A stretch of 63,243 nucleotides of DNA, filler included, from Sanchytrium tribonematis (lineage: Eukaryota): NCBI GenBank assembly GCA_018985235.1. It is 9 parts of 9 records of this genome, joined end to end, with 100 filler letters (N's around TTAATTAATTAA, not from the genome) between each part and the next. Parts side by side here need not be neighbours in the genome. Positions count along the whole stretch, not along the records: positions 25,500 to 30,164 come from JADGIG010000694.1; 8 more parts are not named here. The stretch is one strand, 5' to 3'. The notes below the pieces were generated by a model. The model was not told the origin of the DNA. It saw only the letters and a list, made by a program, of their open reading frames with translations, and searched no databases. Within the stretch, counting starts at the first letter, position 1; every line of letters begins with the position of its first letter. The position numbers and the translations under genes are program-made. This document shows, piece after piece, positions 6,805 through 34,384 of this stretch.

Positions 6805-8336
6805 TTGTTTGAAAGGAGATCCTCGAATTTGAAACGTATTTGGGATACTTTTGATAATAAATGGAGCATTTATTTTGTTTGACGTAAATAATTGATTAAT
6901 TTAATCTTGTAGAATGAGCACTCAACGATTGATGTATGATTTAATCCCATCTCCAAGTTTACCGAGGGAACTTGTAATTGAAAAATCACCAAATAAAGCC
7001 CATGCCGAGTTATAAAACATTAACACCTAATAAATCTAATTCTTAATTTATATTGAACTTCAATTAGCTTTTAGTAATCTTCTAATTGATCTTGACAATG
7101 TATAATAAATACCATCTTATAAAGTTTTTACCAATTCAACGATCCCCCTCCAGCTCAATTCCTCAGAGGGGACTTGAGTAAATAATTAAGAAGGTATAAT
7201 TAACTCGCTCCCCCCATATTTTAAAATGTCAAAAAAACAATAAAAGATTACGTACTTCATATATTATTCATTTTACTAGTGAAATCAACGGTTTTCTTTG
7301 CGTCAGCAGTTTCTTCATCTTAATCGAATTGTGCAATTTTAAATTTTTTTGCAGTCATTGAGTATGCTATTTATTTAATAATACATTTACAACACTAAAC
7401 CAAACTAAGCCATTTTCAATAATGGAAAGTGGAGCTTGATCCCAGTGCTCTACAATTCATTTTCTCAAATTACTAATAGGTGGTTTTCTTAATACTTTTG
7501 ACAATTCAGAATTTCCCATAAATTGTTAACTTGTTCAGTATAAAAGTTTCTGATAGACTTTCTGATATTACTCTTTTAAGATCTAATAATTGCCACATCT
7601 GCTACTTGGCAATATCCAGTTGCACCTTTTGAAACATATAAGCATTTGCTAAATATTCACCTTAATATTTTCTGTTCTAGAAGCTCCATGTGCTGAGCAA
7701 TCCAAATAAGCAATGCATTTCAAAATGGTAAAATGTGATTCAGATATTTGATTAATAATAACTGAGTAACCATCCTATTTAAGTATATCCCATAATACAA
7801 TCTTATTTAGCTGCACTTGTTGTTGCATTTACAATAAAAGGTTTAATTTTGGATCCATTTTTCTTATTTGCAATCATAAATGTAGTATTTGTTTTTTCTA
7901 TAAAACCACTAAAAATAGCGACTACATTGCACCTTTTTAACAACAGTTTTTGGCTTCCCAACATTCATCTAAATAGCAATTTCATCCATGAATAAAATAT
8001 TATCGTCCGTATAATTTGCAGATTCTTTTCTAACATCATAAATGTGATGTGCAGCTGAATTTTCTTATTCCATTTTATCTTTTTTAGTGGATTGTGTAGT
8101 TGATCTGTTAATTAATCCATTTCTATTTAACATTGCTTTGTACCAAGATCCATCTAATATATATTCTAATTCTTGGTTCAATTCATTTTTTAATCAATTC
8201 ATAATTAATAATTATTTTGCATTCCATCATAAACTAAATTCTTTCAATAGTAATCTCTTCAATACTTGCGAATTTCATATTATGTCCAAGTGGTACCACT
8301 TTACGCGATTCTCTCCCTTTAAAATTTAAAATGTTT

Positions 8337-8364
8337 AAGTGTCCACAATAAATCTTTTCTGTTT
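8337..8364 (+). repeat. Tc1 terminal inverted repeat (left)
   Basis: AAGTGTCCACAATAAATCTTTTCTGTTT; reverse complement of 9671..9698 with one mismatch. Confidence 0.88.
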
Positions 8365-9670
8365 TGGAATTGAGGGGACAACGGGGAATTTGGGAGAAAT
8401 CAAAAAAAAAGTTGTCCATTAAAAAAAATTTATTAATAAACATAGTTACGGGCTCCTTTAGTCACAATATGCCCGCCATTTACTTTATGTACTTTTAATA
8501 GTCTACCAGGCACACTCAAAATAGTTTTCTTCACCATTTCTGTATTAATCATCGCGAATTCTTCTCTAATCACTCTCTGAATTAAAACAAATTACAAAAT
8601 ATGTATCCCAGTCCTCACTAGTAATTCCAGTATTATACTCAGAGTGCCTGTCATGTACTTATTCCTTTACGAGACTGATCATATTCTCTACAGGATTTAA
8701 GTCAGGACTTTTGGGCGGCCAATTTAAGGTATCTATACCCAATACACCTAGTTGTTCTATTGTGGGATTACTAGAGTGTGCGCTAGCATTGCCATTAGCA
8801 AATTTGAATTGCATGTTGTTTTTCAGCATCGCAGGTCCTAAACGAGCAACCATCAGATCTTTTACTTGTGGCAATATTTGAGTACAAAAAGAGTCTGAAG
8901 TCACACTTTCACCTGGCTCAAATAAATGAATAAATTCAGTTTCAAATTAATAACAATACATAAATACGCCATAACACCTCTAGATCGTTGAATTTCTTGT
9001 GTAAATTACTCTGGGCGTAAATAATCACCCGGTTTGCGTCATACATGTCTTTGACTACCATGATTATTCTTAAATTCAAACCATGCCTCATCTCCAAAAA
9101 TCACATATTTCCAAAAATGAGGTGTGCAACAAATCCAAGCTCGTGCAAATTCCATTTTTTTAATTCTATGCTCTTTTTCTAGTCGCACACCTCGTATCAA
9201 TTTGAAACATTCGATGTTGAGTTTCTTGTGCAAAAAATTTGACAGGGTTCCTTCTCCACAGTCCAAGTCATAATGCCAAATGATATCTAGTAATGTAATT
9301 GCATTATTGTGATGACTCACAAATATACCTATATCTTCAATCAAATCATTGAAAATTAAACAATCACGACCAGGCCTTCTTTTCTATTCAATGCTTTTTG
9401 TCACTAAACAATTTGATAAAGTGTCAACAATTTGGTCATAATTTGGTGAACTGACACAAGATTCAGATATCTTTTCTATATTTATTGCATTTTTCGCAAT
9501 GCCCATTTTAATGATCCATAAATAATATCTAATCTCTTGTATTCATTTGATGTAAATTTGACATTGTCAGTGTCATTTGGTATTTGTTGAAGTAGTTGTA
9601 CAATCTTCTCTTTGAACATTTGTTTCAAGTTAATTCCACGTGGCATCATTTGTTTGAGAAATGATTTTCG

Positions 9671-9698
9671 AAACAGAAAAGATTTATTGTGGTCACTT
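9671..9698 (-). repeat. Tc1 terminal inverted repeat (right)
   Basis: AAACAGAAAAGATTTATTGTGGTCACTT followed by TA. Confidence 0.88.
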
Positions 9699-10834
9699 TA
9701 TGCGCATTTTTTCTACAAGAGCGAATTGTCTTTGGAGTTTTGTTATATTTTCTTGAAATTTCTTTTAAAGATAGCCTTTGAATTGCTAGATCACGTAAAG
9801 CTTTTCTTTTAGTCTTTACCGGTATCTGCTTTTTGTTTGCCATTTGTTTGTTACAAAAAATATTTACTAAAATCTATTCAATTCCCCATTAATTCCCGCG
9901 GTAAATGAATTTCCTCTTTTATAGTAAATAGACTCATTTGTGATTGACTGGAAATCTTTTGTAGGATTTATTGGGCCATTGAAATTTGCAAATTATTTTC
10001 CAGTTTTTTTAACACATTTATACCTGTATAAAGCGAAAATAAAATTTTTTATTTATACTTATAGCGGAAATTCCGTTATATTTAGAAGAGCCGCTTTAAT
10101 TGGTAATAATTTTCTCGTGAATACGGTATTTCCTGCTCGTTCTTAGAACCGACCACGAGCAACGGCTGAATTCTCCTCCTATACGGGATACCATCATCCT
10201 TTCTAGCGTGAATTACAGCACTAAATTTTCCTGAGTGCTTTGCTTCCTCTGCTTCTAGTAAACGTCAGTTTACTAGACTTTCCCTTCTGCTTACATCTTC
10301 CTCTCTTTCCGATAGAGCCTTTGCATCTCTTCTGATAAAACAACAGGTGTTTCTTCTTGTAATTCTTTTGTGTGTTGTTGTTTATTCATAGAAATTGTAT
10401 TTATTGACGGATCTCTAAGTAGAATCTGCTAAGGCTGATTCAATTCCAACGTTTTCCGACCAATCATTTGGCTCTGTTTTCTGACTATTTGCCAAACCCC
10501 CACTAGCAGTGATTGGGTCATCCCTTAAATCCGCAGGTTGAATTCTTTCAACTTGCTTATCTGTCGTCCCTGACTCGCTTTGCGACAAATTTATACTTTA
10601 CTCCCTAGGCAAGTCATATTTTCAGAAAACATAATTTTTTAAAAAAGTAAATTTTTAAGATGAAAATTTGTGATACTTTCAATATGAGTTTTAGCAAAAT
10701 TTACTTCAAATTCGATCATTTCGGAAAATAGCACGCTGTCAAAATACCAGATTTGTCGAAAATTGTCCAGATTTAAAATTTAAATCCAGATCTTCTGAAA
10801 GGGGTATACTTCAATTATATTAAATTTAAATATT

Positions 10835-12970
10835 ATGTTTTCAAAAGTTAAGAAGTTACATAAGTATGAGAATCTGAGAAAATATTTTGCTGCCGAATCT
10901 CAAGAATTTAAATTTAGTCTTCATTTATTGCAAAGAAAATCAAATCCCAGTTACGTGTTCAATCTTAGCGGATCTGTCGTAGCAAGTTCGGACCTAAGGT
11001 CTATAGAACTATTGACTCAATATGGAACAGCTTATTTTGAAATTCTATCTTTTGTTGATGACGAAATTTTTCAAATTGAATCAGCAATTTGGAGTGATGT
11101 CATTTGCATCAGGTCAAGAGAATCTCTGATAGCGTTCAAAATGCGCGATAATAATTTGGTAAAGCTGCCAATAAAGTGCAGCAAGATTTTATTATTTACA
11201 ACTCCATTATCAAATGATAACAATACAACTTTCTGCTTTATTTTTTCCAGTGGGATTTTAAATATTATGAATCTTTCCCTAATGAAATTGTGCTCCTACA
11301 CCTACGAATTTAAAAATGAGGAATGTAAATTTTTGCTGCAAAATCCACGTAATCCTAATCAGCTTTTAATTGGTCTAGAGAGTATTGTTTATTTGTACGA
11401 TGTTTGTAAAATGCATATTTTAACGAAATACTCTATAAGAGATGTTCAGTCTGGGTGTTTTAGTCCGTTGGGAACTCAAATTTGCGTCGCTACATCCACT
11501 GATCTCTTGTTTTTTTCGCGAGAATCAAACGAAGTGAATTTCAATTATGCGACTTTGAATGTTAAATACATTGATTGGTTCATGGATGTCGATGACTATT
11601 TATTTGTGATAAGTAATAACATTTCCATTTACAAATATAAAAATAATTTAGTAAAAATTAGGGAAGTTCAAGGAAATTCCGGGAAGATTTTATTTGATAA
11701 TGCATTTTGGAAAATGGGCCAGCATTATTACCTGATTGATAATAACATTATATCACAGAGATTGATAGAATTTGGTTTAAAGCATGACTTTTCGGGAGTT
11801 CCTCATTTTTTTAATGTATCAAGCAATTTCTTGAAAAAATTGACCGTTGAAAATTTAAATTTACCGTTTGAACTAAATTTAATTGTGGATGAAATTGATA
11901 TGGCATTCCCAGACTTGATTGTTTATCAAAATGAAAAAGGATTATCATTTTACCAATACTTCACATCTAGCGGAATTTTGTCCAAATGCAAAGTCAATTA
12001 TGAAAAAAGGGTGGATCTTTTCACAATTTACAAAGACAATTTAATTATATTTGATAAAGAAATTCAAATTTATAGCCTTGATAATGATAATTGGAATCGT
12101 ATCAAAACATATCCAGTCCAAGCAAGTCCGATTGGGACAACTGAAGAGGCTTTAATTGCATTCTCGTCCAATTTTAAAATAATTTTTTTGTCGGACGTAG
12201 TTTTGGAATACAGTGTTAAAGTTGAAAATATATTCTTCGTTAAACGTGACATCTTCTTGTTTGTGTCAGGAAATAAAACTCAAGTCGTTAAATTTGACAA
12301 CGGTACGTTTAAAGTGATCTACGAAAAAGAATTTGTGGCAAAAAAGTGCGTATTTGTCGAGGCAAGAAACCTAATTTTGTTGCAACTAGATGAACTTATT
12401 TGTATTGAAAAAGATGAAGTTTTTGCAATTAAAAATGATATTTTTGATGGACTGCTTTCACTTCAAGATATTGTCTTTGGCGTCAAGGTGTCTACAATGG
12501 AAATTACCCTGTTTGAGATCTTCGGCTCTAGAAGCAAATCGTTTCCGATTCCATTGAAATCAGAAATCTTTGTGTTTGATGAAAGGATCTACATTTATGG
12601 AGCCTCTTTTCTTTACGTCTTGAGCGAAAAAGATTTCTTCAGAATATCTTGCAACGCGGACATACCAAAACGAAAATTGCCAAAACAAGGACCTTTATCA
12701 TATGTTAAAAGCTTATTTAAATCAGATTTCAGCAGATTTGAGGAGACTGAATTTGAGGAAGATCCGCAATTTTACTATGACTGTCTTGCTGATTTACATA
12801 CTCTATTTTCCAAACAAATGTCTGTCCAAACAAATGAAAATTTGCAGTTTGAGGAGCTCCGAAATGTCCTAGTAGAAAGGGGAGAAAGGCTAGAGGAACT
12901 AAACTCAAAATTTAACGACTTAGAATTGGGAGCCAAAAATCTACTAAAATTAGCTCGAAATTTGAAGTGA
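10835..12970 (+). CDS. Tomosyn/Lgl/Sro7-like beta-propeller protein with C-terminal R-SNARE motif
   Basis: Beta-rich body; C-terminal LVERGERLEELNSKFNDLELGAKNL is synaptobrevin-like. Confidence 0.65.
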   Translation: MFSKVKKLHKYENLRKYFAAESQEFKFSLHLLQRKSNPSYVFNLSGSVVASSDLRSIELLTQYGTAYFEILSFVDDEIFQIESAIWSDVICIRSRESLIAFKMRDNNLVKLPIKCSKILLFTTPLSNDNNTTFCFIFSSGILNIMNLSLMKLCSYTYEFKNEECKFLLQNPRNPNQLLIGLESIVYLYDVCKMHILTKYSIRDVQSGCFSPLGTQICVATSTDLLFFSRESNEVNFNYATLNVKYIDWFMDVDDYLFVISNNISIYKYKNNLVKIREVQGNSGKILFDNAFWKMGQHYYLIDNNIISQRLIEFGLKHDFSGVPHFFNVSSNFLKKLTVENLNLPFELNLIVDEIDMAFPDLIVYQNEKGLSFYQYFTSSGILSKCKVNYEKRVDLFTIYKDNLIIFDKEIQIYSLDNDNWNRIKTYPVQASPIGTTEEALIAFSSNFKIIFLSDVVLEYSVKVENIFFVKRDIFLFVSGNKTQVVKFDNGTFKVIYEKEFVAKKCVFVEARNLILLQLDELICIEKDEVFAIKNDIFDGLLSLQDIVFGVKVSTMEITLFEIFGSRSKSFPIPLKSEIFVFDERIYIYGASFLYVLSEKDFFRISCNADIPKRKLPKQGPLSYVKSLFKSDFSRFEETEFEEDPQFYYDCLADLHTLFSKQMSVQTNENLQFEELRNVLVERGERLEELNSKFNDLELGAKNLLKLARNLK

Positions 12971-23423: not shown

Positions 23424-23454
23424 CCATAATAAATTGATTTTCATTGCATAAATT

Positions 23455-24753
23455 ATGAAGGGGGCCAACGAATTTAATTTTGGTCTTTGGAAACACAAAA
23501 TCCCCATGTTGGGAAATGGAAATAAAACTCTATTTGATTTTTATGGATCTATTGTGGATGTGAGGAAGCACCACAATATGAGTTGTGTATCTGTTTTCAA
23601 TGGTGTTTATCGCCAATTCGATAATTCAGAGGAAGTCATATTCAGATGCAATCATTTTAAGAAAAATCCTATAAATAATCATTCGATACAAATATCTGAT
23701 ATCAAATTGCTGAGCAAACATACTTTTACGACATATACAGTTGAAGAATCTAAATTATTTAAGGATTGGGATTGCTGTAAAAATGATTTCCCTTATAACG
23801 AATATTTAGGATTGGAAGATCCGCGAATATTTCAACATCTGAATGAAACTTTTTTATATTATACAATGAACAATCCACTGGGAAAATATCCAATTAGAGG
23901 AATTGGGTATACAAATTTATTAGATGCAAAAAAAGGTAATCAAAAAACTACTTTTTTACAAACAAACATTTATGGGAAGGTACCTAAAGTTCAAAAAAAT
24001 TGGGGCTTTTTTAGTGATTCAAAGCAGCTCAGAGTGCTTTATTCAATCGATCCTTTCATTTTAGGAGAAATTACATATGATGAGGGCGTTCCAACATTAC
24101 ATGCAAGACAAAAACGAAGTTACGGCTGTTTTAAACCAGGCAGAAGTGTTCATATGTCTTCAAATGTTTTACCAATCACTATTAATGGTAAGAGAGAGTA
24201 TTTTGTAATGATAAATTACAGGCCTTTGTCTAATGAATTTGGTTATATATCCGGCTTTGCATTTATGAGTGGTCAAAAACCATTTCGTCTGCTTAGAATT
24301 AGCAAACGAAAATTGACTACAAACATCACTGCCAATAATATTGTATACTATCATAGCATTACCGTGAAAGGGAGCAAATATTTAAGTGCGACTCAAGAGG
24401 ATACTTTAATTTTTAGTGGCGGGATCGATGATAGTTTTGTTTTCAAATCGGAGCTTAGAGTCAATGATTTGCTTCAAATACCTACGTTAGATTGCTTTGA
24501 AAATCATTTTAATTTTGATCAACTGAAATTTAAATTACAGAGTGAAATTGCAGCTGAAAATGCACAGGCCGAGCTTGAAAGACTTGAAGCCGAAAGAGTA
24601 TCTCTTGAAAATGCCAAGAAACTAGAAAATGAAAGAATCTTCAAAACTAATGTCAATATTTTATGTACTTGGTATAGTTTAATACTTATTATATTTTTTA
24701 TGCTTTACAAATTTGGAAAAAAACAATACCGAAAGCCAAATACCCGTACTTGA
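23455..24753 (+). CDS. Putative beta-mannosyltransferase (GT91/Bmt)-like propeller protein with C-terminal TM; paralog of 33227..34384
   Basis: GLEDPRIF and QKNW motifs; C-terminal hydrophobic helix followed by a basic tail. Confidence 0.5.
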   Translation: MKGANEFNFGLWKHKIPMLGNGNKTLFDFYGSIVDVRKHHNMSCVSVFNGVYRQFDNSEEVIFRCNHFKKNPINNHSIQISDIKLLSKHTFTTYTVEESKLFKDWDCCKNDFPYNEYLGLEDPRIFQHLNETFLYYTMNNPLGKYPIRGIGYTNLLDAKKGNQKTTFLQTNIYGKVPKVQKNWGFFSDSKQLRVLYSIDPFILGEITYDEGVPTLHARQKRSYGCFKPGRSVHMSSNVLPITINGKREYFVMINYRPLSNEFGYISGFAFMSGQKPFRLLRISKRKLTTNITANNIVYYHSITVKGSKYLSATQEDTLIFSGGIDDSFVFKSELRVNDLLQIPTLDCFENHFNFDQLKFKLQSEIAAENAQAELERLEAERVSLENAKKLENERIFKTNVNILCTWYSLILIIFFMLYKFGKKQYRKPNTRT

Positions 24754-25499: not shown

Positions 25500-25623
25500 A
25501 ATTAATGTCACAAATTGTATGGAATTTTGAATCTATGGATTTGAATCAAAACAGATGATCTGATTTATTGACATTTGTTATGCATATGACTAGCAGTTAC
25601 TGGCAGCTATATCTCTTTTCTGG
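25500..25623 (+). repeat. Inverted repeat arm (left) of the kinase/helicase cassette, cut by the contig end
   Basis: Reverse complement of 29956..30091 apart from two substitutions and a short tandem duplication. Confidence 0.92.
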
Positions 25624-25709
25624 TTAAGTAAGAGGTAAAGAATTCCAAGTAGAATCTCCATTTTTAATAGAAATCCCCATGAATTGACTTTGAAATCAAA
25701 TTAAAATGT

Positions 25710-27971
25710 TTATTCAGTATATAGTTGTTTCTCACTAATTTGGAATTTTTTTCTTATAATTGTTTTCATATTAGGATGCTTTTTCTCCACTTCAGAAATT
25801 AGAGATTGCCACTTTTCTATTTTATTTGAGAGGCCCAATGTCATATAGCGCGGCGTACTTTTCAATTTGAAATAATTGGAATTATAATTAGCAAATAGCG
25901 TAGTAAATAAAACTGTGGAAATTTGCTGTCCATGAAAATCACTAATTTCAGTGACTTCATTCCATTCAAGAAGCAAATCTCCAGTGAGCATTTCCAACAT
26001 CAATATACCCACGTTATACTCATCTGCATATTTCCCATAATCTTCAATAGATTCGTAAGTGCGAGGCAATAAATGAAATTGTTTCCATGGTTCATCAAAT
26101 TTTTGTGAAATACCCTGGCCATGTTGAAAAAAATATATATGTGATGGGCTTCTATAATGTTTTTCACCCAAATAAAGTTTTGAGTCATGATTGTCGTGGA
26201 ATTTCGACCATTCCATGGATTTCGTTTTATAGGAAGTTATTGTCTCTGCATGATTGAAATTCACAATCAATGGCTCCTCCTTATTAACTATCATGACATT
26301 TTCTGAGCTGATGTCAAGAACAAATATCTGTTTTCCATGGATAAATTGGAGTGCTTCGTCTAGTTTTTGACAAAATGTGATTGTTTTTACTTGTTCAAGC
26401 TTTATGTTACTCCGCAAATAATCTTGAATGCTTTCCACTTCATTTTTAAATGTGAATGGAAGTGAAATTAAAAGGGCCATTGCAATTGAAATGTCATTTT
26501 CTCTTTTCAGGTAAAATTTATGATCAGGATAATTCAAAGCTGAATAAATGCTTAATTCAACTTCTGAATATTTCATTTTGATAATATTTAAAGTGTGATT
26601 AAATAGATTTGATCCTAAAATTAATAATTCTGTATTTATAATTTTGATAATGTGAAGTGATTTAAAATTGATAACTTCACAAATGGTAATGTCCTCGGGC
26701 TCTTTAATGGAGCCATCTAAAGCTCGTTTCAACCCACAATAATCATTAGATGTCTCTATAGCAACATCAGATTTCATTTTAGCAATTTCAGATGAAGGTG
26801 CGCTAGGATTATCCAAGTCATCTAATATTTTTGAATGATGGTGATCAGTATTGATTGGATTTGCTTCACAAACGGGATACTCGTGTGCAATTAAAATTGT
26901 TTCATTTTCATGTTGAATATTCTCAACCGGTTCTACGTTTGCAGCTTCTTCGTTGGGATCATGTGGGCCATCCTCATTTGCCTCAATATCTCTCGCAAGT
27001 TCTTTCATTGTCAATGTTTTAAAATCATAAATGGACATGTTATACTGAATTTTGTCCGGATCAAAGTATTCGTTTATATGACAATGATCTGTATAGGTCA
27101 ACCATCCATATTCCTTATCATTTGTTATATAACAATTTAAAAGAAATGGGCACGTCACTTTGCACTGTTCAAATTCACATTGGTGCTTTTCAATGTGTCT
27201 TGAAATTTCATTGATTGCCATGCGCAATACAAATTGAATATTGCCATCTTTTATAAAAAAGAAACCACCATCACAATTTGTCCTACAGCTCTTGATTACT
27301 TGCTGAAAAGGATTTCTTTCTTTAAAAATGACCTTTTTAATTTTAATTGAATCCTTTCGATCATCTGTGCTTTTCCAAATTACCCTAAATGACTTTGTTA
27401 GTCTACTAATAATGGTGTTGTGACTCATATGCTGATTAATATATGAATCAGTTGAAGTTGAAATTTTGAAAATATACCGATTTGCCGATATTTTAATGGG
27501 TTGTTGGTCCAATTTATAATTTAGCAAAATTTTAGTGATGGCAGGATGATTGTGAGTATTCAATTGGGGAAATGCAGAAGCCAAATTTTGATTTAAAATC
27601 TGGCTAGATTTTAGTGTGGGATCATCTAATTTTAATAGCATTTGCTTTATCAAAGCATCAATATATTCAGGCTTTTTGGATATATCCAACATCGACGCCG
27701 TGATAATTTGACGTGATGGATGCAATAATGATAATTGAGTAATTGGATTGTAATATTCAATGTTTTCAGAATTTCCATGAATAACGTCGAATACTTCTCT
27801 TGCTATCTTTTCGCATGATAATGCGTCACATTCATATTTTGGTTTTGGTTCAATTCGTAACATGTGTGGAGGGGTCCAATGGGGGTCCATTAACTTTTCA
27901 ATATATTGTTCAGAATATATTTGTGATTTGTTTAATAACGCAAGTTTGATGGTTAGCAAATTAAACAGCAA
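25710..27971 (-). CDS. Divergent protein kinase-like (probable pseudokinase) with unknown N-terminal region; first ATG at 27890
   Basis: LQFIHGKQIFVLDISSENVM (HRD loop), NFN in place of DFG, GEKHYRSP, ADEYNVGILMLEMLTG. Confidence 0.7.
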   Translation of the reverse strand: MLFNLLTIKLALLNKSQIYSEQYIEKLMDPHWTPPHMLRIEPKPKYECDALSCEKIAREVFDVIHGNSENIEYYNPITQLSLLHPSRQIITASMLDISKKPEYIDALIKQMLLKLDDPTLKSSQILNQNLASAFPQLNTHNHPAITKILLNYKLDQQPIKISANRYIFKISTSTDSYINQHMSHNTIISRLTKSFRVIWKSTDDRKDSIKIKKVIFKERNPFQQVIKSCRTNCDGGFFFIKDGNIQFVLRMAINEISRHIEKHQCEFEQCKVTCPFLLNCYITNDKEYGWLTYTDHCHINEYFDPDKIQYNMSIYDFKTLTMKELARDIEANEDGPHDPNEEAANVEPVENIQHENETILIAHEYPVCEANPINTDHHHSKILDDLDNPSAPSSEIAKMKSDVAIETSNDYCGLKRALDGSIKEPEDITICEVINFKSLHIIKIINTELLILGSNLFNHTLNIIKMKYSEVELSIYSALNYPDHKFYLKRENDISIAMALLISLPFTFKNEVESIQDYLRSNIKLEQVKTITFCQKLDEALQFIHGKQIFVLDISSENVMIVNKEEPLIVNFNHAETITSYKTKSMEWSKFHDNHDSKLYLGEKHYRSPSHIYFFQHGQGISQKFDEPWKQFHLLPRTYESIEDYGKYADEYNVGILMLEMLTGDLLLEWNEVTEISDFHGQQISTVLFTTLFANYNSNYFKLKSTPRYMTLGLSNKIEKWQSLISEVEKKHPNMKTIIRKKFQISEKQLYTE

Positions 27972-28054
27972 GTTGAGTTGCTTTATTAGGTATTATTGAT
28001 GGCTTTTTAGAGAATATATTGATGATGTAATTATTAAGGGTGAAGTCCTAAAAC

Positions 28055-29935
28055 ATGATTTCATTGTCCGATTTTGTAAGAAGATCACTATCTCAAATCA
28101 AAATAATTAAACACACCGATAACAATAGAAGAGAATATCGCATTTTTCATGGTTTGAGTGTCCCAACAGAAAATTGGCAGGGAGATAAATTTGCTTACTT
28201 GAACTATTTAAGCTGGTGTGTGGCTACTGAATTATATGAAGAAGCTTTGGAAATTGTTAATGAATGTACGTCAAGATGGATGAATGTATTAGACATACAA
28301 ATTAACGAAAATACCGGAATTTGTTTATTTGATATTTATCCATCAAGAAATGACTTTACAAGTCATAAATTTATAATCTATCAAATGGGAGACTGTTTTG
28401 GAATTGCATTTTCCGATAGGGATGTTCCTTTTGAGGCGGAGTTGCTTTCAGACGATCAAACAATTCAATACTGTGAGATCAATGAAAAATTTGGAATAAT
28501 CACGTACTTGAGACAATTCAAAGTTTTATTTGATCTATATACAGATTCTACAGAAGTTTTGCTCAATTTTTTTCAGCCATGGTCTGGGATTAAAATAAGG
28601 AATATTAATCATAAAAACGAACACTTAAATCGAGAATGGGGTCCCTCTTCATTCCTCAAAACTTTTAATGAAATGCAAAAGCGCGTTATTTATGATGCAT
28701 TTATGTTAGAAACTGGCATTCTAGGTGTACAGGGCCCACCTGGAACTGGTAAAACCCATACAATTACTGGTATTGTTTGGGAGTTACTGTTTAATTTCCC
28801 AGAAAGGCGAATTCTTATTTGTGCACAATCAAATTACGCCGCAACTAATTGCTTCGATAAGATAAATTGTTTAAATTGGAAGCAATTTGTTGATTGTAGA
28901 GGTTCAAAGCATAATTTTGAATACATTTCTCCATTTAGGGCAGGTTCAGAAACACGTAATTCGAATCAAATTAAAACAGATGCTGATCAGCATTGGGAAT
29001 TCAGAAAGCAAAGATTCAATTTAAAGGCGAATATTAGAAAAAAGCATTATTTGCAGAACATGAAAATTATCGTGACTACAACAAGTTCTTCTGCTAGATC
29101 TGAATTGGGAAGTCTGGCATTTGATTATCTAATAATAGATGAGGCAGCTCAAATCAATGAGGTGGAGACTCTTCTTGCCATTTATCATGCAAAAGCCAAA
29201 AGGATATATTTAGTAGGAGATCAGTTACAATTAGGACCACTTGTGAGATCAGAAATGGCTAAAAGGCAGAATTTTGATCGAAGCATGTTTGAAAGACTGT
29301 ATAACGATAATCTGATAAAAACATATTTACTGACTAAGCAATATCGAATGCATCCAGAAATTTGTAGATATATTTCTAAAGCATTCTATAGAGGACACCT
29401 AGAGATTGGCGAAAATGTAAAAAATATGCCGAATAGTTTATTTGAAATTGACGAATTTGAGCATTTTATGTTTATCGATGTAGATGGCACGAGTGACATT
29501 AATACAGATTTGATGTCATACTTTAATTATGGTGAAGCAGCAAAAGTCATCGAAATGACAAACAGAATTTTGTCTACCGGAAGAGTAGATTTAAAAGATA
29601 TTGTTGTAATCACCCCATATTCTGGCCAAAAAGATTTAATTGTGGGTTTAGTCAAAAGCACCAAAAATGAGAAATTAAGAGTTGAGACTGTAGATTCTAT
29701 GCAAGGAAAAGAGAGTAGAATTGTGTTATTAAGTACAGTTAAAAGCGATTCAGAACGCTTGGGTTTTATTAAAGAAAACCAAAAACGTCAAAATGTGGCT
29801 TTAAGTAGAGCCAAAGAATATTTGTTTATATTCGGAAACTTAAAAGCGTTTGAAAATGAAGACATCTGGAGAAAAATGTTTAATTATCTTAGTCGCGAGG
29901 GAAATATCAGCTTCAAAGAGATAAAATTTAAATAA
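28055..29935 (+). CDS. Upf1/Sen1/DNA2-like SF1 helicase (AAA_11/AAA_12)
   Basis: QGPPGTGKT, CAQSNYA, IIDEAAQ, LVGDQLQLGP, QYRMHPEI, ITPYSGQ, TVDSMQGKE, NVALSRAK all intact; no Upf1 CH domain. Confidence 0.93.
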   Translation: MISLSDFVRRSLSQIKIIKHTDNNRREYRIFHGLSVPTENWQGDKFAYLNYLSWCVATELYEEALEIVNECTSRWMNVLDIQINENTGICLFDIYPSRNDFTSHKFIIYQMGDCFGIAFSDRDVPFEAELLSDDQTIQYCEINEKFGIITYLRQFKVLFDLYTDSTEVLLNFFQPWSGIKIRNINHKNEHLNREWGPSSFLKTFNEMQKRVIYDAFMLETGILGVQGPPGTGKTHTITGIVWELLFNFPERRILICAQSNYAATNCFDKINCLNWKQFVDCRGSKHNFEYISPFRAGSETRNSNQIKTDADQHWEFRKQRFNLKANIRKKHYLQNMKIIVTTTSSSARSELGSLAFDYLIIDEAAQINEVETLLAIYHAKAKRIYLVGDQLQLGPLVRSEMAKRQNFDRSMFERLYNDNLIKTYLLTKQYRMHPEICRYISKAFYRGHLEIGENVKNMPNSLFEIDEFEHFMFIDVDGTSDINTDLMSYFNYGEAAKVIEMTNRILSTGRVDLKDIVVITPYSGQKDLIVGLVKSTKNEKLRVETVDSMQGKESRIVLLSTVKSDSERLGFIKENQKRQNVALSRAKEYLFIFGNLKAFENEDIWRKMFNYLSREGNISFKEIKFK

Positions 29936-29955
29936 AAATCATGCATTCTGTAAAG

Positions 29956-30091
29956 CCAGAAAAGAGAAATAGCTGCCAGTAACTGCTAGTCATATGCATA
30001 ACAAATGTCAATAAATCAGATCATCTGTTTAGATCATCTGTTTGATTCAAATCCATAGATTCAATATTCCATACAATTTGTGACATTAATT
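29956..30091 (-). repeat. Inverted repeat arm (right) of the kinase/helicase cassette
   Basis: Matches 25500..25623 in reverse complement; contains AGATCATCTGTTT twice (30018..30043). Confidence 0.92.
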
Positions 30092-30264
30092 GAAAATAAA
30101 ATAGCCCATTGACCACAAAATAAATAGAATCAGTGATATTTATTTATAATTGAGTCATTTGTCGNNNNNNNNNNNNNNNNNNNNNNNNNNNNNNNNNNNN
30201 NNNNNNNNTTAATTAATTAANNNNNNNNNNNNNNNNNNNNNNNNNNNNNNNNNNNNNNNNNNNN

Positions 30265-33226: not shown

Positions 33227-34384
33227 TTAGCACTCGCTTTCTCTAATTTTTTTATATTGAATAGCTTCGGAAGAAAAAAATTTAATGTAAAATTTTCTAA
33301 CGAACAGCCCAAAAATGGCAATACCCATAACAAATAGTATAATCATACTTGACCCTGATAGCTGATGAGTCCTTTTTGATTCAGGATATCCAAAATACGC
33401 CCATTCGCCATTTTCAGCTGTACAAGATTTGGAAGGCAATTCCATTAGGTCTCTCAAATATATTTGGATTTTAAAAACATTTTTGTCGTCAATCCCGCCA
33501 CTTAATAATATCACGTCATCTAGACTGTCTGTATGCAACTCATTTTTACCTTGTATTGTTATTCCGTCAAAATAAATCAGCTTGTTATATTCTATTCCAA
33601 AATCAATTGTATTTCTAGTGATTCGTTTTAATTCAAATGGGGCTTCAGCTTGAAAAAAAGCGAGGTGTGAAAGATACTTTGAAGAATCTTCAATCGGTCT
33701 ATTATTAAAAGCTACCATGTACTCTGGTTGATTGTCCTGTATAATCTTAATCGCATTTGAAGAGAAATGAACCTCGTCCTCTGGATGAAAACAATTGTAT
33801 TGTCTCTTAATTCTAGCGTTAAATGTTGAATTGGAAATATCTCCTAATATGTAAGGATTCATTTTGTAAAGAACAATTAGATCTGTTCCATTATCAATAA
33901 ACACCCAATTCTTTTCGACTTTTGGAGAAGCTCCAAAAACGTTTGTCTGTAGAAAAGTTTTAGATTTAGATTTAGCATAATTCTGAGAAAGAGCGTCTTT
34001 CAATTTAATTATCTCAATACCCCGCATTGGAAATTGAGGAAGTGGATTTGTCATTGAATAATAAAGAAATATGTCATCTTTGAACTCAAATATTCGAGCT
34101 TCTTCGGGGCCAATAAAGTTTTTCCATTGTCCATCTCTAGTATTATTAGTGTCCCAGCCCATAAATTCCTGACTCATCTCACTAGAGTAAGTTTGTGAAA
34201 ACGACCTGGTCAGAAATTTAACAACGCTTCTTCTCTTATTGTTTTCAACACAAGTGCATCTTAAGATTAAAAGTTCTTCTTGATTCAATTTATAAACGAC
34301 CCCATTGAACAGGACTTCGCATTCGTCGATTCCATCATAATTAGAAAAATCGTAAACCTGAACCGCATAAGAATCAGGCGACAT
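33227..34384 (-). CDS. Putative GT91/Bmt-like propeller protein with C-terminal TM; paralog of 23455..24753
   Basis: GPEEARIF, EKNW; shares YYSMTNPL..FPMRGI, FLQTNVFG and SGGIDD with the paralog. Confidence 0.5.
   Translation of the reverse strand: MSPDSYAVQVYDFSNYDGIDECEVLFNGVVYKLNQEELLILRCTCVENNKRRSVVKFLTRSFSQTYSSEMSQEFMGWDTNNTRDGQWKNFIGPEEARIFEFKDDIFLYYSMTNPLPQFPMRGIEIIKLKDALSQNYAKSKSKTFLQTNVFGASPKVEKNWVFIDNGTDLIVLYKMNPYILGDISNSTFNARIKRQYNCFHPEDEVHFSSNAIKIIQDNQPEYMVAFNNRPIEDSSKYLSHLAFFQAEAPFELKRITRNTIDFGIEYNKLIYFDGITIQGKNELHTDSLDDVILLSGGIDDKNVFKIQIYLRDLMELPSKSCTAENGEWAYFGYPESKRTHQLSGSSMIILFVMGIAIFGLFVRKFYIKFFSSEAIQYKKIRESEC

Follow-up and report, generated by a model that had tools for sequence, protein, structure and literature searches.

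Pack-TYPE transposons (Pack-TIR, Pack-MULE and Pack-CACTA) consist of inverted multicopy repeats around coding DNA, with no transposase inside and with the inner ends of the repeats lost; in the two-element model of their formation, a region flanked by two copies comes to move as one unit once these have lost their inner ends (PMC12187468, in part; here and below, 'in part' means that the statement draws on a portion of the source). A Crinkler-like gene has been moved by flanking transposons (PMC12957317, in part), and the fungal Styx element contains intact extra open reading frames (ORFs) but its own integrase (PMC10853768, in part). Terminal inverted repeats, small size and divergent kinase ORFs are found together in the cytoplasmic virus-like elements of early-diverging fungi such as Coemansia (PMC13348850, in part), and transpovirons and Tlr1/PLV elements are about 5-7 kb long, have ends of 380-520 nt, encode an SF1 helicase and depend on a helper (PMC7031253 and PMC3671162, both in part). 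Here we describe a locus of Sanchytrium tribonematis (GCA_018985235.1) that shares features with several of these. It occupies positions 25500-30164 of the window, the whole analysed stretch of 63,243 nt in which nine contigs are joined by N linkers, and is one entire contig of 4,665 nt (JADGIG010000694.1). Two intact ORFs, encoding a kinase-like protein and a Upf1-like helicase, lie head to head on it between inverted repeat arms. Our tentative reading, to which we give a little less than an even chance, is that the gene pair between two inverted, inner-truncated repeat copies is a chromosomal, non-autonomous Pack-TYPE-like unit. It differs from the Pack-TYPE elements in its fungus-like host and in carrying two genes that are intact, of full length and without a known parent.

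Two copies of a longer repeat around the gene pair

The repeat-derived ends of the contig enclose 4,267 nt, of which 4,062 nt (95%) belong to the two genes (Table 1). The original prediction had described two head-to-head genes with less than 170 nt of shared upstream DNA, and this description holds: the ORFs encode 726 aa (753 aa in the complete open frame) and 626 aa, and the ATG-to-ATG distance is 164 nt. The arms lie where that prediction had placed them, beginning 86 nt (left) and 20 nt (right) past the respective stop codons, and alignment of one arm with the other gives the same two substitutions and 12-nt insertion, the latter in the right arm. The longest exact inverted match on the contig is 62 nt, compared with 12-18 nt in all 30 shuffles and 12-38 nt in seven other short contigs of the window. 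A Pfam scan of both long ORFs returned kinase and Upf1-type helicase families and no transposase family, as had been anticipated, and no B-type DNA polymerase or YKP gene was found among the two.

Table 1. Coordinates of the features on the 4,665-nt contig (positions in the window)
Feature	Positions	Strand	Remarks
Left arm	25500-25623	minus	Copy of multicopy repeat; contig end lies within the arm
Inner repeat-like segment	25630-25666	minus	Common to high-depth run contigs (222, 168) that diverge on both sides
Kinase-like ORF	25710-27971	minus	Open frame 753 aa; 726 aa from ATG at 27890
Orphan gene, predicted pseudokinase	25710-27890	minus	726 aa; Pfam Pkinase
Kinase-like domain	25713-26675	minus	Motifs assigned by eye
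Shared upstream region	27891-28054		164 nt; likely two-way promoter; three copies of AATATATT
Helicase ORF, Upf1-like SF1 type by sequence	28055-29935	plus	626 aa; AAA_11 and AAA_12; motifs I-VI intact
Inner repeat segment	29934-29955	plus	Common to depth-311 copy; starts within the helicase stop codon
Right arm	29956-30091	plus	Tandem copy at 30018-30043 adds 12 nt absent from the commonest copy
Outer continuation of right repeat copy	30092-30164	plus	Extends at least 127 nt beyond the contig end (311-nt run contig)

The repeat family was studied in the assembled contigs of one public run, the only one that matched this stretch; the figures for the contig come from the best 8 of 10 matching run contigs and those for host depths from the best 8 of 133 matching run records. 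Over the arms the run contigs have depths of 311, 436 and 494.5. The contig of depth 494.5, which has a length of 311 nt and is without the 12-nt insertion, continues 127 nt beyond the end of the 4,665-nt contig. That of depth 311 matches from position 29934 and then runs inward through 37 nt of non-helicase sequence, and the inward letters of the contigs of depth 222 and 168, which match 25630-25666, overlap this 37-nt stretch. Each arm differs from the commonest repeat copy in its own manner, as is usual for separate copies on a chromosome. The arms are thus diverged copies of a longer, multicopy repeat, as had been proposed; it is at least about 383 nt long, has internal variants and exists in several copies, because the arm contigs branch into different inner flanks, whatever their depth means. 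Since other copies run inward beyond both junctions with a shared motif, the inner arm ends are cut points and not termini, and repeat-like DNA extends inward as far as 25666 and 29934, which are 43 and 0 nt from the stop codons. Two independent insertions of a miniature transposon (MITE), named in advance as a refutation, fit poorly with inner ends that are not element ends and with a repeat that is absent from the rest of the window.

The interior from 25581 to 29785 is a single 4,207-nt run contig of depth 29.1 without a single difference. Because it includes 43 nt of the left arm, this separately assembled contig spans the left junction. The right junction has no such bridge, the stretch 29786-29933 being covered by none of the run contigs, a gap that proves nothing. 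Host contigs of the same run have depths of 86.1 (14.2 kb) and 151.1 (4.4 kb), and variant pairs have depths of 46-69; the depth ratios, a rough measure, are 17 for arm to interior, 3-6 for arm to host and 0.19-0.34 for interior to host. The proposed depth comparison thus came out above host for the repeat arms (311-494.5) and not raised for the interior of the gene pair (29.1 against 86-151); we read the low interior depth only as the absence of the high depth expected for a plasmid.

The arm sequence has no match in the other approximately 58 kb of the window and none among Rfam families, folds no better than shuffles (z of -1.0 and -0.7) and gave 0 loci in pattern searches of viral, metagenome and prokaryote collections. 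Several smaller features lie at the inner edges. A 13-pair RNA hairpin with several G-U pairs can form at 25658-25690, spanning the point at which the kinase 3' region gives way to the repeat; taken as a whole, the region that bears it folds no better than shuffles. The inner motif at 25630-25666 contains an ATG in strong context, and in other copies its frame resembles, by eye, the beginning of a signal peptide. Going by these letters, a multicopy gene for a secreted protein may begin within the repeat. At 25624-25627, the inner edge of the left arm, TTAA is followed by CC on the minus strand, and the right arm has no TTAA. This edge would resemble an outward-facing piggyBac end.

With its inner-truncated arms, the layout matches the two-element Pack-TYPE model (PMC12187468, in part). 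On this reading two copies of a terminal-repeat element would have come to flank the gene pair and then lost their inner parts, or, alternatively, the interior of one terminal-repeat element would have been replaced; in either case the outer ends would be cut and moved in trans by a transposase encoded elsewhere. Terminal-repeat DNA transposons exist in the host, as a Tc1-like relic with 33-bp ends at 8337-9698 attests, and the ends of this relic are unrelated to the arms. Host-like codon use and GC3, the bridged left junction and a related kinase piece that diverged free of purifying selection also count towards this reading. Several points weigh against the Pack-TYPE-like reading. The repeat runs past the contig end, and no outer terminus, target-site duplication, empty site or matching transposase was seen. 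The interior is unique: the run contigs show no other near-identical copy of it, so that the mobility originally predicted for the pair gained no support. Neither cargo gene has a known parent, the related pieces being only 142 nt (88%) and 47 nt (96%) long, and Pack-TYPE elements usually carry fragments of host genes (PMC12187468, in part). In their inner segments the two arms follow different repeat variants, as would also be expected if two insertions had occurred separately in a rearranged region, and the host is so compact that any insertion falls near a stop codon. Finally, the run may be the window's own source and is then not independent, and contig depth is not copy number, the DNA possibly being amplified and the depth uneven, to judge from a fold-back elsewhere in the window.

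If the outer ends are transposon termini, the locus would be a Pack-TYPE-like unit with two whole, intact orphan genes in a compact fungus-like genome, and accessory genes could travel by this route. A free module whose ends recur on others would represent a new kind of helper-dependent element; and if the bracketing is incidental, two very divergent genes of modest interest remain. Among the papers listed in our searches of open-access text there was neither a DNA transposon with a Upf1-like helicase as cargo nor such a helicase in an inverted-repeat element.

The helicase and kinase-like genes

By its motifs the 626-aa protein is a Upf1-like SF1 helicase, in agreement with the original prediction. 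Its top matches, taken from the best 120 of each search, cover part of its length at 27-38% identity and are of mixed UPF1, IGHMBP2, SEN1 and HELZ2 types. Like UPF1, SEN1, IGHMBP2 and HELZ2 it has all motifs of the motor core intact (27-35% identical), but unlike them it has a very long branch and no CH or other accessory domain: the CH zinc domain and the 1B domain (PF09416 and PF18141) gave no match, no other extra domain was recognized, and the N-terminal 200 aa match none of seven subfamily profiles. PIF1 is not listed among its Pfam matches. The first tree set held 54 of the 120 matches (one lacked a Walker A match and the rest were thinned at 70% identity), and the second 37 of 38 chosen rows (P0189 was dropped), with MOV10, Aquarius and DNA2 outside the set. 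In these trees the helicase is a long branch (1.1-1.65) beside bacterial MkoA-type kinase-helicase fusions, a grouping supported at 94, 85 and 80 by quick trees and at 80/67 by a careful tree; placements with UPF1, SEN1 and SMUBP2 were not rejected (p of 0.37, 0.16 and 0.74). Protein-led locus searches of the viral, metagenome and prokaryote collections returned no relatives.

Type I Mokosh resembles the gene pair in combining kinase and Upf1-like helicase domains, and the bacterial fusions are the weak tree neighbours of the helicase. Here, in contrast, the genes are separate and divergent and the kinase motifs are dead. Mokosh requires a PLD nuclease (bioRxiv 10.1101/2022.12.12.520048, in part), and neither of the two long ORFs matches the PLD nuclease MkoB. 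A Mokosh origin has no support beyond the weak tree support, and the MkoA profile score of the helicase is the fourth lowest of 19 Upf1-like proteins.

The 726-aa protein matches Pfam Pkinase above the cut-off (E 4.5e-9). With motif names from established kinase knowledge, placed by eye, the residues K438 (beta-3), E443 (alpha-C) and D526 and N531 (catalytic loop) are kept, while HRD has become VLD, DFG has become NFN, APE has become SPS and the glycine-rich loop is missing. The protein thus appears, by these letters, to keep the lysine and the HRD aspartate of an active protein kinase and to differ in its DFG motif and absent glycine loop, and is predicted to be a pseudokinase, as first suggested. 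No relative was found among 5,421 candidates, and P0122, the sole other hit among 1.84 billion representatives, is a spurious repeat-rich match. Language-model look-alikes are generic kinases, mostly from giant viruses (score 0.92, a lead only). The N-terminal approximately 400 aa gave no usable Atlas hit, and fold searches with poor structure models (pLDDT of 33 and 38) returned nothing at E 0.001 or Z 5. Around residues 200-270 a degenerate REase-like pattern can be made out by eye, and its catalytic residues are not evident. Crinkler-type REase and kinase effectors are likewise about 700 aa long with a C-terminal kinase (PMC5289972, in part); the kinase-like protein differs in giving no match to Crinkler or REase profiles at E up to 10.

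Both cargo proteins form clusters of one in the protein collection, with EukProt entries only, and two run contigs hold related pieces. A 1,059-nt contig (depth 55) is 88% identical to 142 nt of the kinase gene (26288-26429, minus strand), with 17 differences. Of these, 14 are listed, 11 of them at codon positions 1-2; 11 codons are changed, ten with an altered residue, and a 30-nt flank contains an in-frame stop, read by eye. On its sequence this piece looks like a decayed copy that diverged without purifying selection. The other, a 226-nt contig (depth 18.6), is 96% identical to 47 nt of the helicase gene.

The region shared by the two start codons is likely a two-way promoter, from which both genes would be transcribed outward. 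AATATATT occurs in it three times and in none of seven host head-to-head gaps, and across the whole window it was observed 14 times against 5.2 expected. ATNTGA, presumably an upstream motif of virus-like elements, is absent upstream of either start codon.

The setting of the pair is that of the host. The remaining contigs of the window carry ordinary eukaryotic genes, such as those for importin alpha, RasGEF, Sec7 and ribosomal proteins (23 of the 27 scanned ORFs match Pfam); the closest solved structure to importin alpha is chain 4rxh, a fungal protein, by which the host would be fungus-like. The codon scores of the two genes (0.149 and 0.174) and their GC content at third codon positions (GC3; 0.28 and 0.27) fall inside the spans of 25 host ORFs (0.063-0.223 and 0.21-0.36), and the dinucleotide odds of the contig agree with those of host contigs. 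Eight uninterrupted host ORFs of 708-1157 codons occur in the window, as do the seven head-to-head gaps, which are 56-367 nt long when measured from the first in-frame ATG. Missing introns and a short spacer are thus ordinary for this compact host. As a sign of a virus or plasmid, compactness or intron absence was rejected, host ORFs and gaps being similar.

As to function, the helicase would use ATP to move 5' to 3' along RNA or DNA and would do so without the targeting domains that UPF1 or SEN1 has, and the kinase-like protein would be a non-catalytic regulator or decoy. It is possible, if doubtful, that the pair acts jointly in an RNA-level conflict, for example in antiviral defence or counter-silencing, which would explain its fast divergence. 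The toxin-antidote role also put forward at the outset found no supporting evidence.

Alternative accounts of the contig

The account that survives best beside the Pack-TYPE-like unit, and one that we hold to be unlikely, is that the bracketing is incidental: an accessory or subtelomeric region rich in repeats contains a gene pair that evolves fast and is present in a single copy, two separate fragments of one repeat flank it in opposite directions by chance, and the pair never moves as a unit. The unique interior, the different repeat variants followed by the inner parts of the arms and the host-like spacing and codon use all suit this account, and nested, degraded repeats are present in the host at 7400-10500. 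Against it, the copies stand in inverted orientation, each cut off at its inner side, at 0 and 43 nt from the stops, and the repeat is absent from the other approximately 58 kb of the window. The chance of a second inverted copy within 4.3 kb is about 0.0002-0.003, given 3-17 copies, an assumed genome of 10-20 Mb and random insertion, a figure that local hopping would raise in favour of chance.

A further account is a helper-dependent linear satellite, in which the contig would be one of about eight small linear molecules with shared terminal repeats and different cargo, the polymerase lying on another molecule, as in fungal virus-like elements and transpovirons. An arm-to-interior depth ratio of 17 would equal two arms times about 8.5 units, and the giant-virus kinases among the look-alikes of the kinase-like protein point the same way, as a lead. 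The repeat of at least 383 nt is within the range of transpoviron ends, 380-520 nt (PMC7031253, in part), and constellations of Coemansia virus-like elements have diverse kinase ORFs (PMC13348850, in part). Nearly all non-Dikarya virus-like elements, however, carry a polymerase and have 4-80 times nuclear depth (PMC13348850, in part), whereas this contig has no B-type or other polymerase gene and its interior, by the same rough measure of depth, stands at only 0.19-0.34 of host. Transpovirons differ in turn: they have a PIF1-sister helicase in fusion with an inactive polymerase (PMC5499653, in part), whereas the helicase here is of Upf1 type, with no zinc-finger core gene and no giant-virus partner seen. 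GC content and codons are host-like, the ATNTGA motif is missing and the decayed copy of the kinase gene fits a nuclear relic. The helicase is not of the YKP4 type either, YKP4 being an SF2 helicase. The arms, moreover, are unequal, and replicating linear plasmids tend to keep their arms identical. On the unequal arms, the depth not above host and the host-like codons, the linear extrachromosomal module of the original prediction was not upheld, and the satellite account is improbable. Equally improbable, in our estimate, is a broader version in which the repeat would mark about eight small shared-end modules with swappable intact cargo, either polymerase-free satellites or cargo transposons of an early-diverging fungus, the stripped Upf1-like helicase and pseudokinase forming an RNA-level defence or counter-silencing unit that resembles a split Mokosh MkoA.

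An artefact, in which the assembler or a chimeric molecule linked a unique gene pair to a repeat, is very improbable. Another contig of the window does end in a perfect 38-nt fold-back, but the arms of this one are 4.3 kb apart and unequal, its left junction lies inside the 4,207-nt contig from another assembler, and the 12-nt insertion private to the right arm would be missing from a consensus path. Least probable of all is a second organism or virus in the sample as the source of the contig: its depth is below that of host contigs, neither gene has a close relative and bacterial kinase-helicase fusions are weak tree neighbours of the helicase (80/67), but the contig agrees with host contigs in codon use, GC3 and dinucleotide odds, and the viral, metagenome and prokaryote collections gave no match.

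Other features of the window

The Tc1-like relic is a degenerate Tc1/IS630-like transposon whose inverted ends are 91% identical and which retains a DDE_3 fragment (E 2.4e-5). A run contig (depth 139) joins 8333 directly to 9698 and is a copy of the surroundings without the element. These surroundings, at 7400-8333 and 9698-10500, are a many-variant repeat (summed depth up to 1271) that hosts the insertion and is unrelated to the arms; two ORF pieces in the repeat at 7400-10500 have no Pfam match. The 38-nt fold-back lies at a contig end (44051-44088 and 44376-44413), is typical of amplification chimeras and suggests amplified DNA with uneven depth.

Long host ORFs with no Pfam match occur at 10799-12967, 23452-24750 and 33230-34384 (723, 433 and 385 aa). 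An 895-aa ORF at 50697-53381, also without a Pfam match, has the lowest GC3 among the 25 host ORFs and looks leucine-rich-repeat-like by eye. At 53962-56874, one ORF fuses anthranilate synthase component I, glutamine amidotransferase and indole-3-glycerol phosphate synthase.

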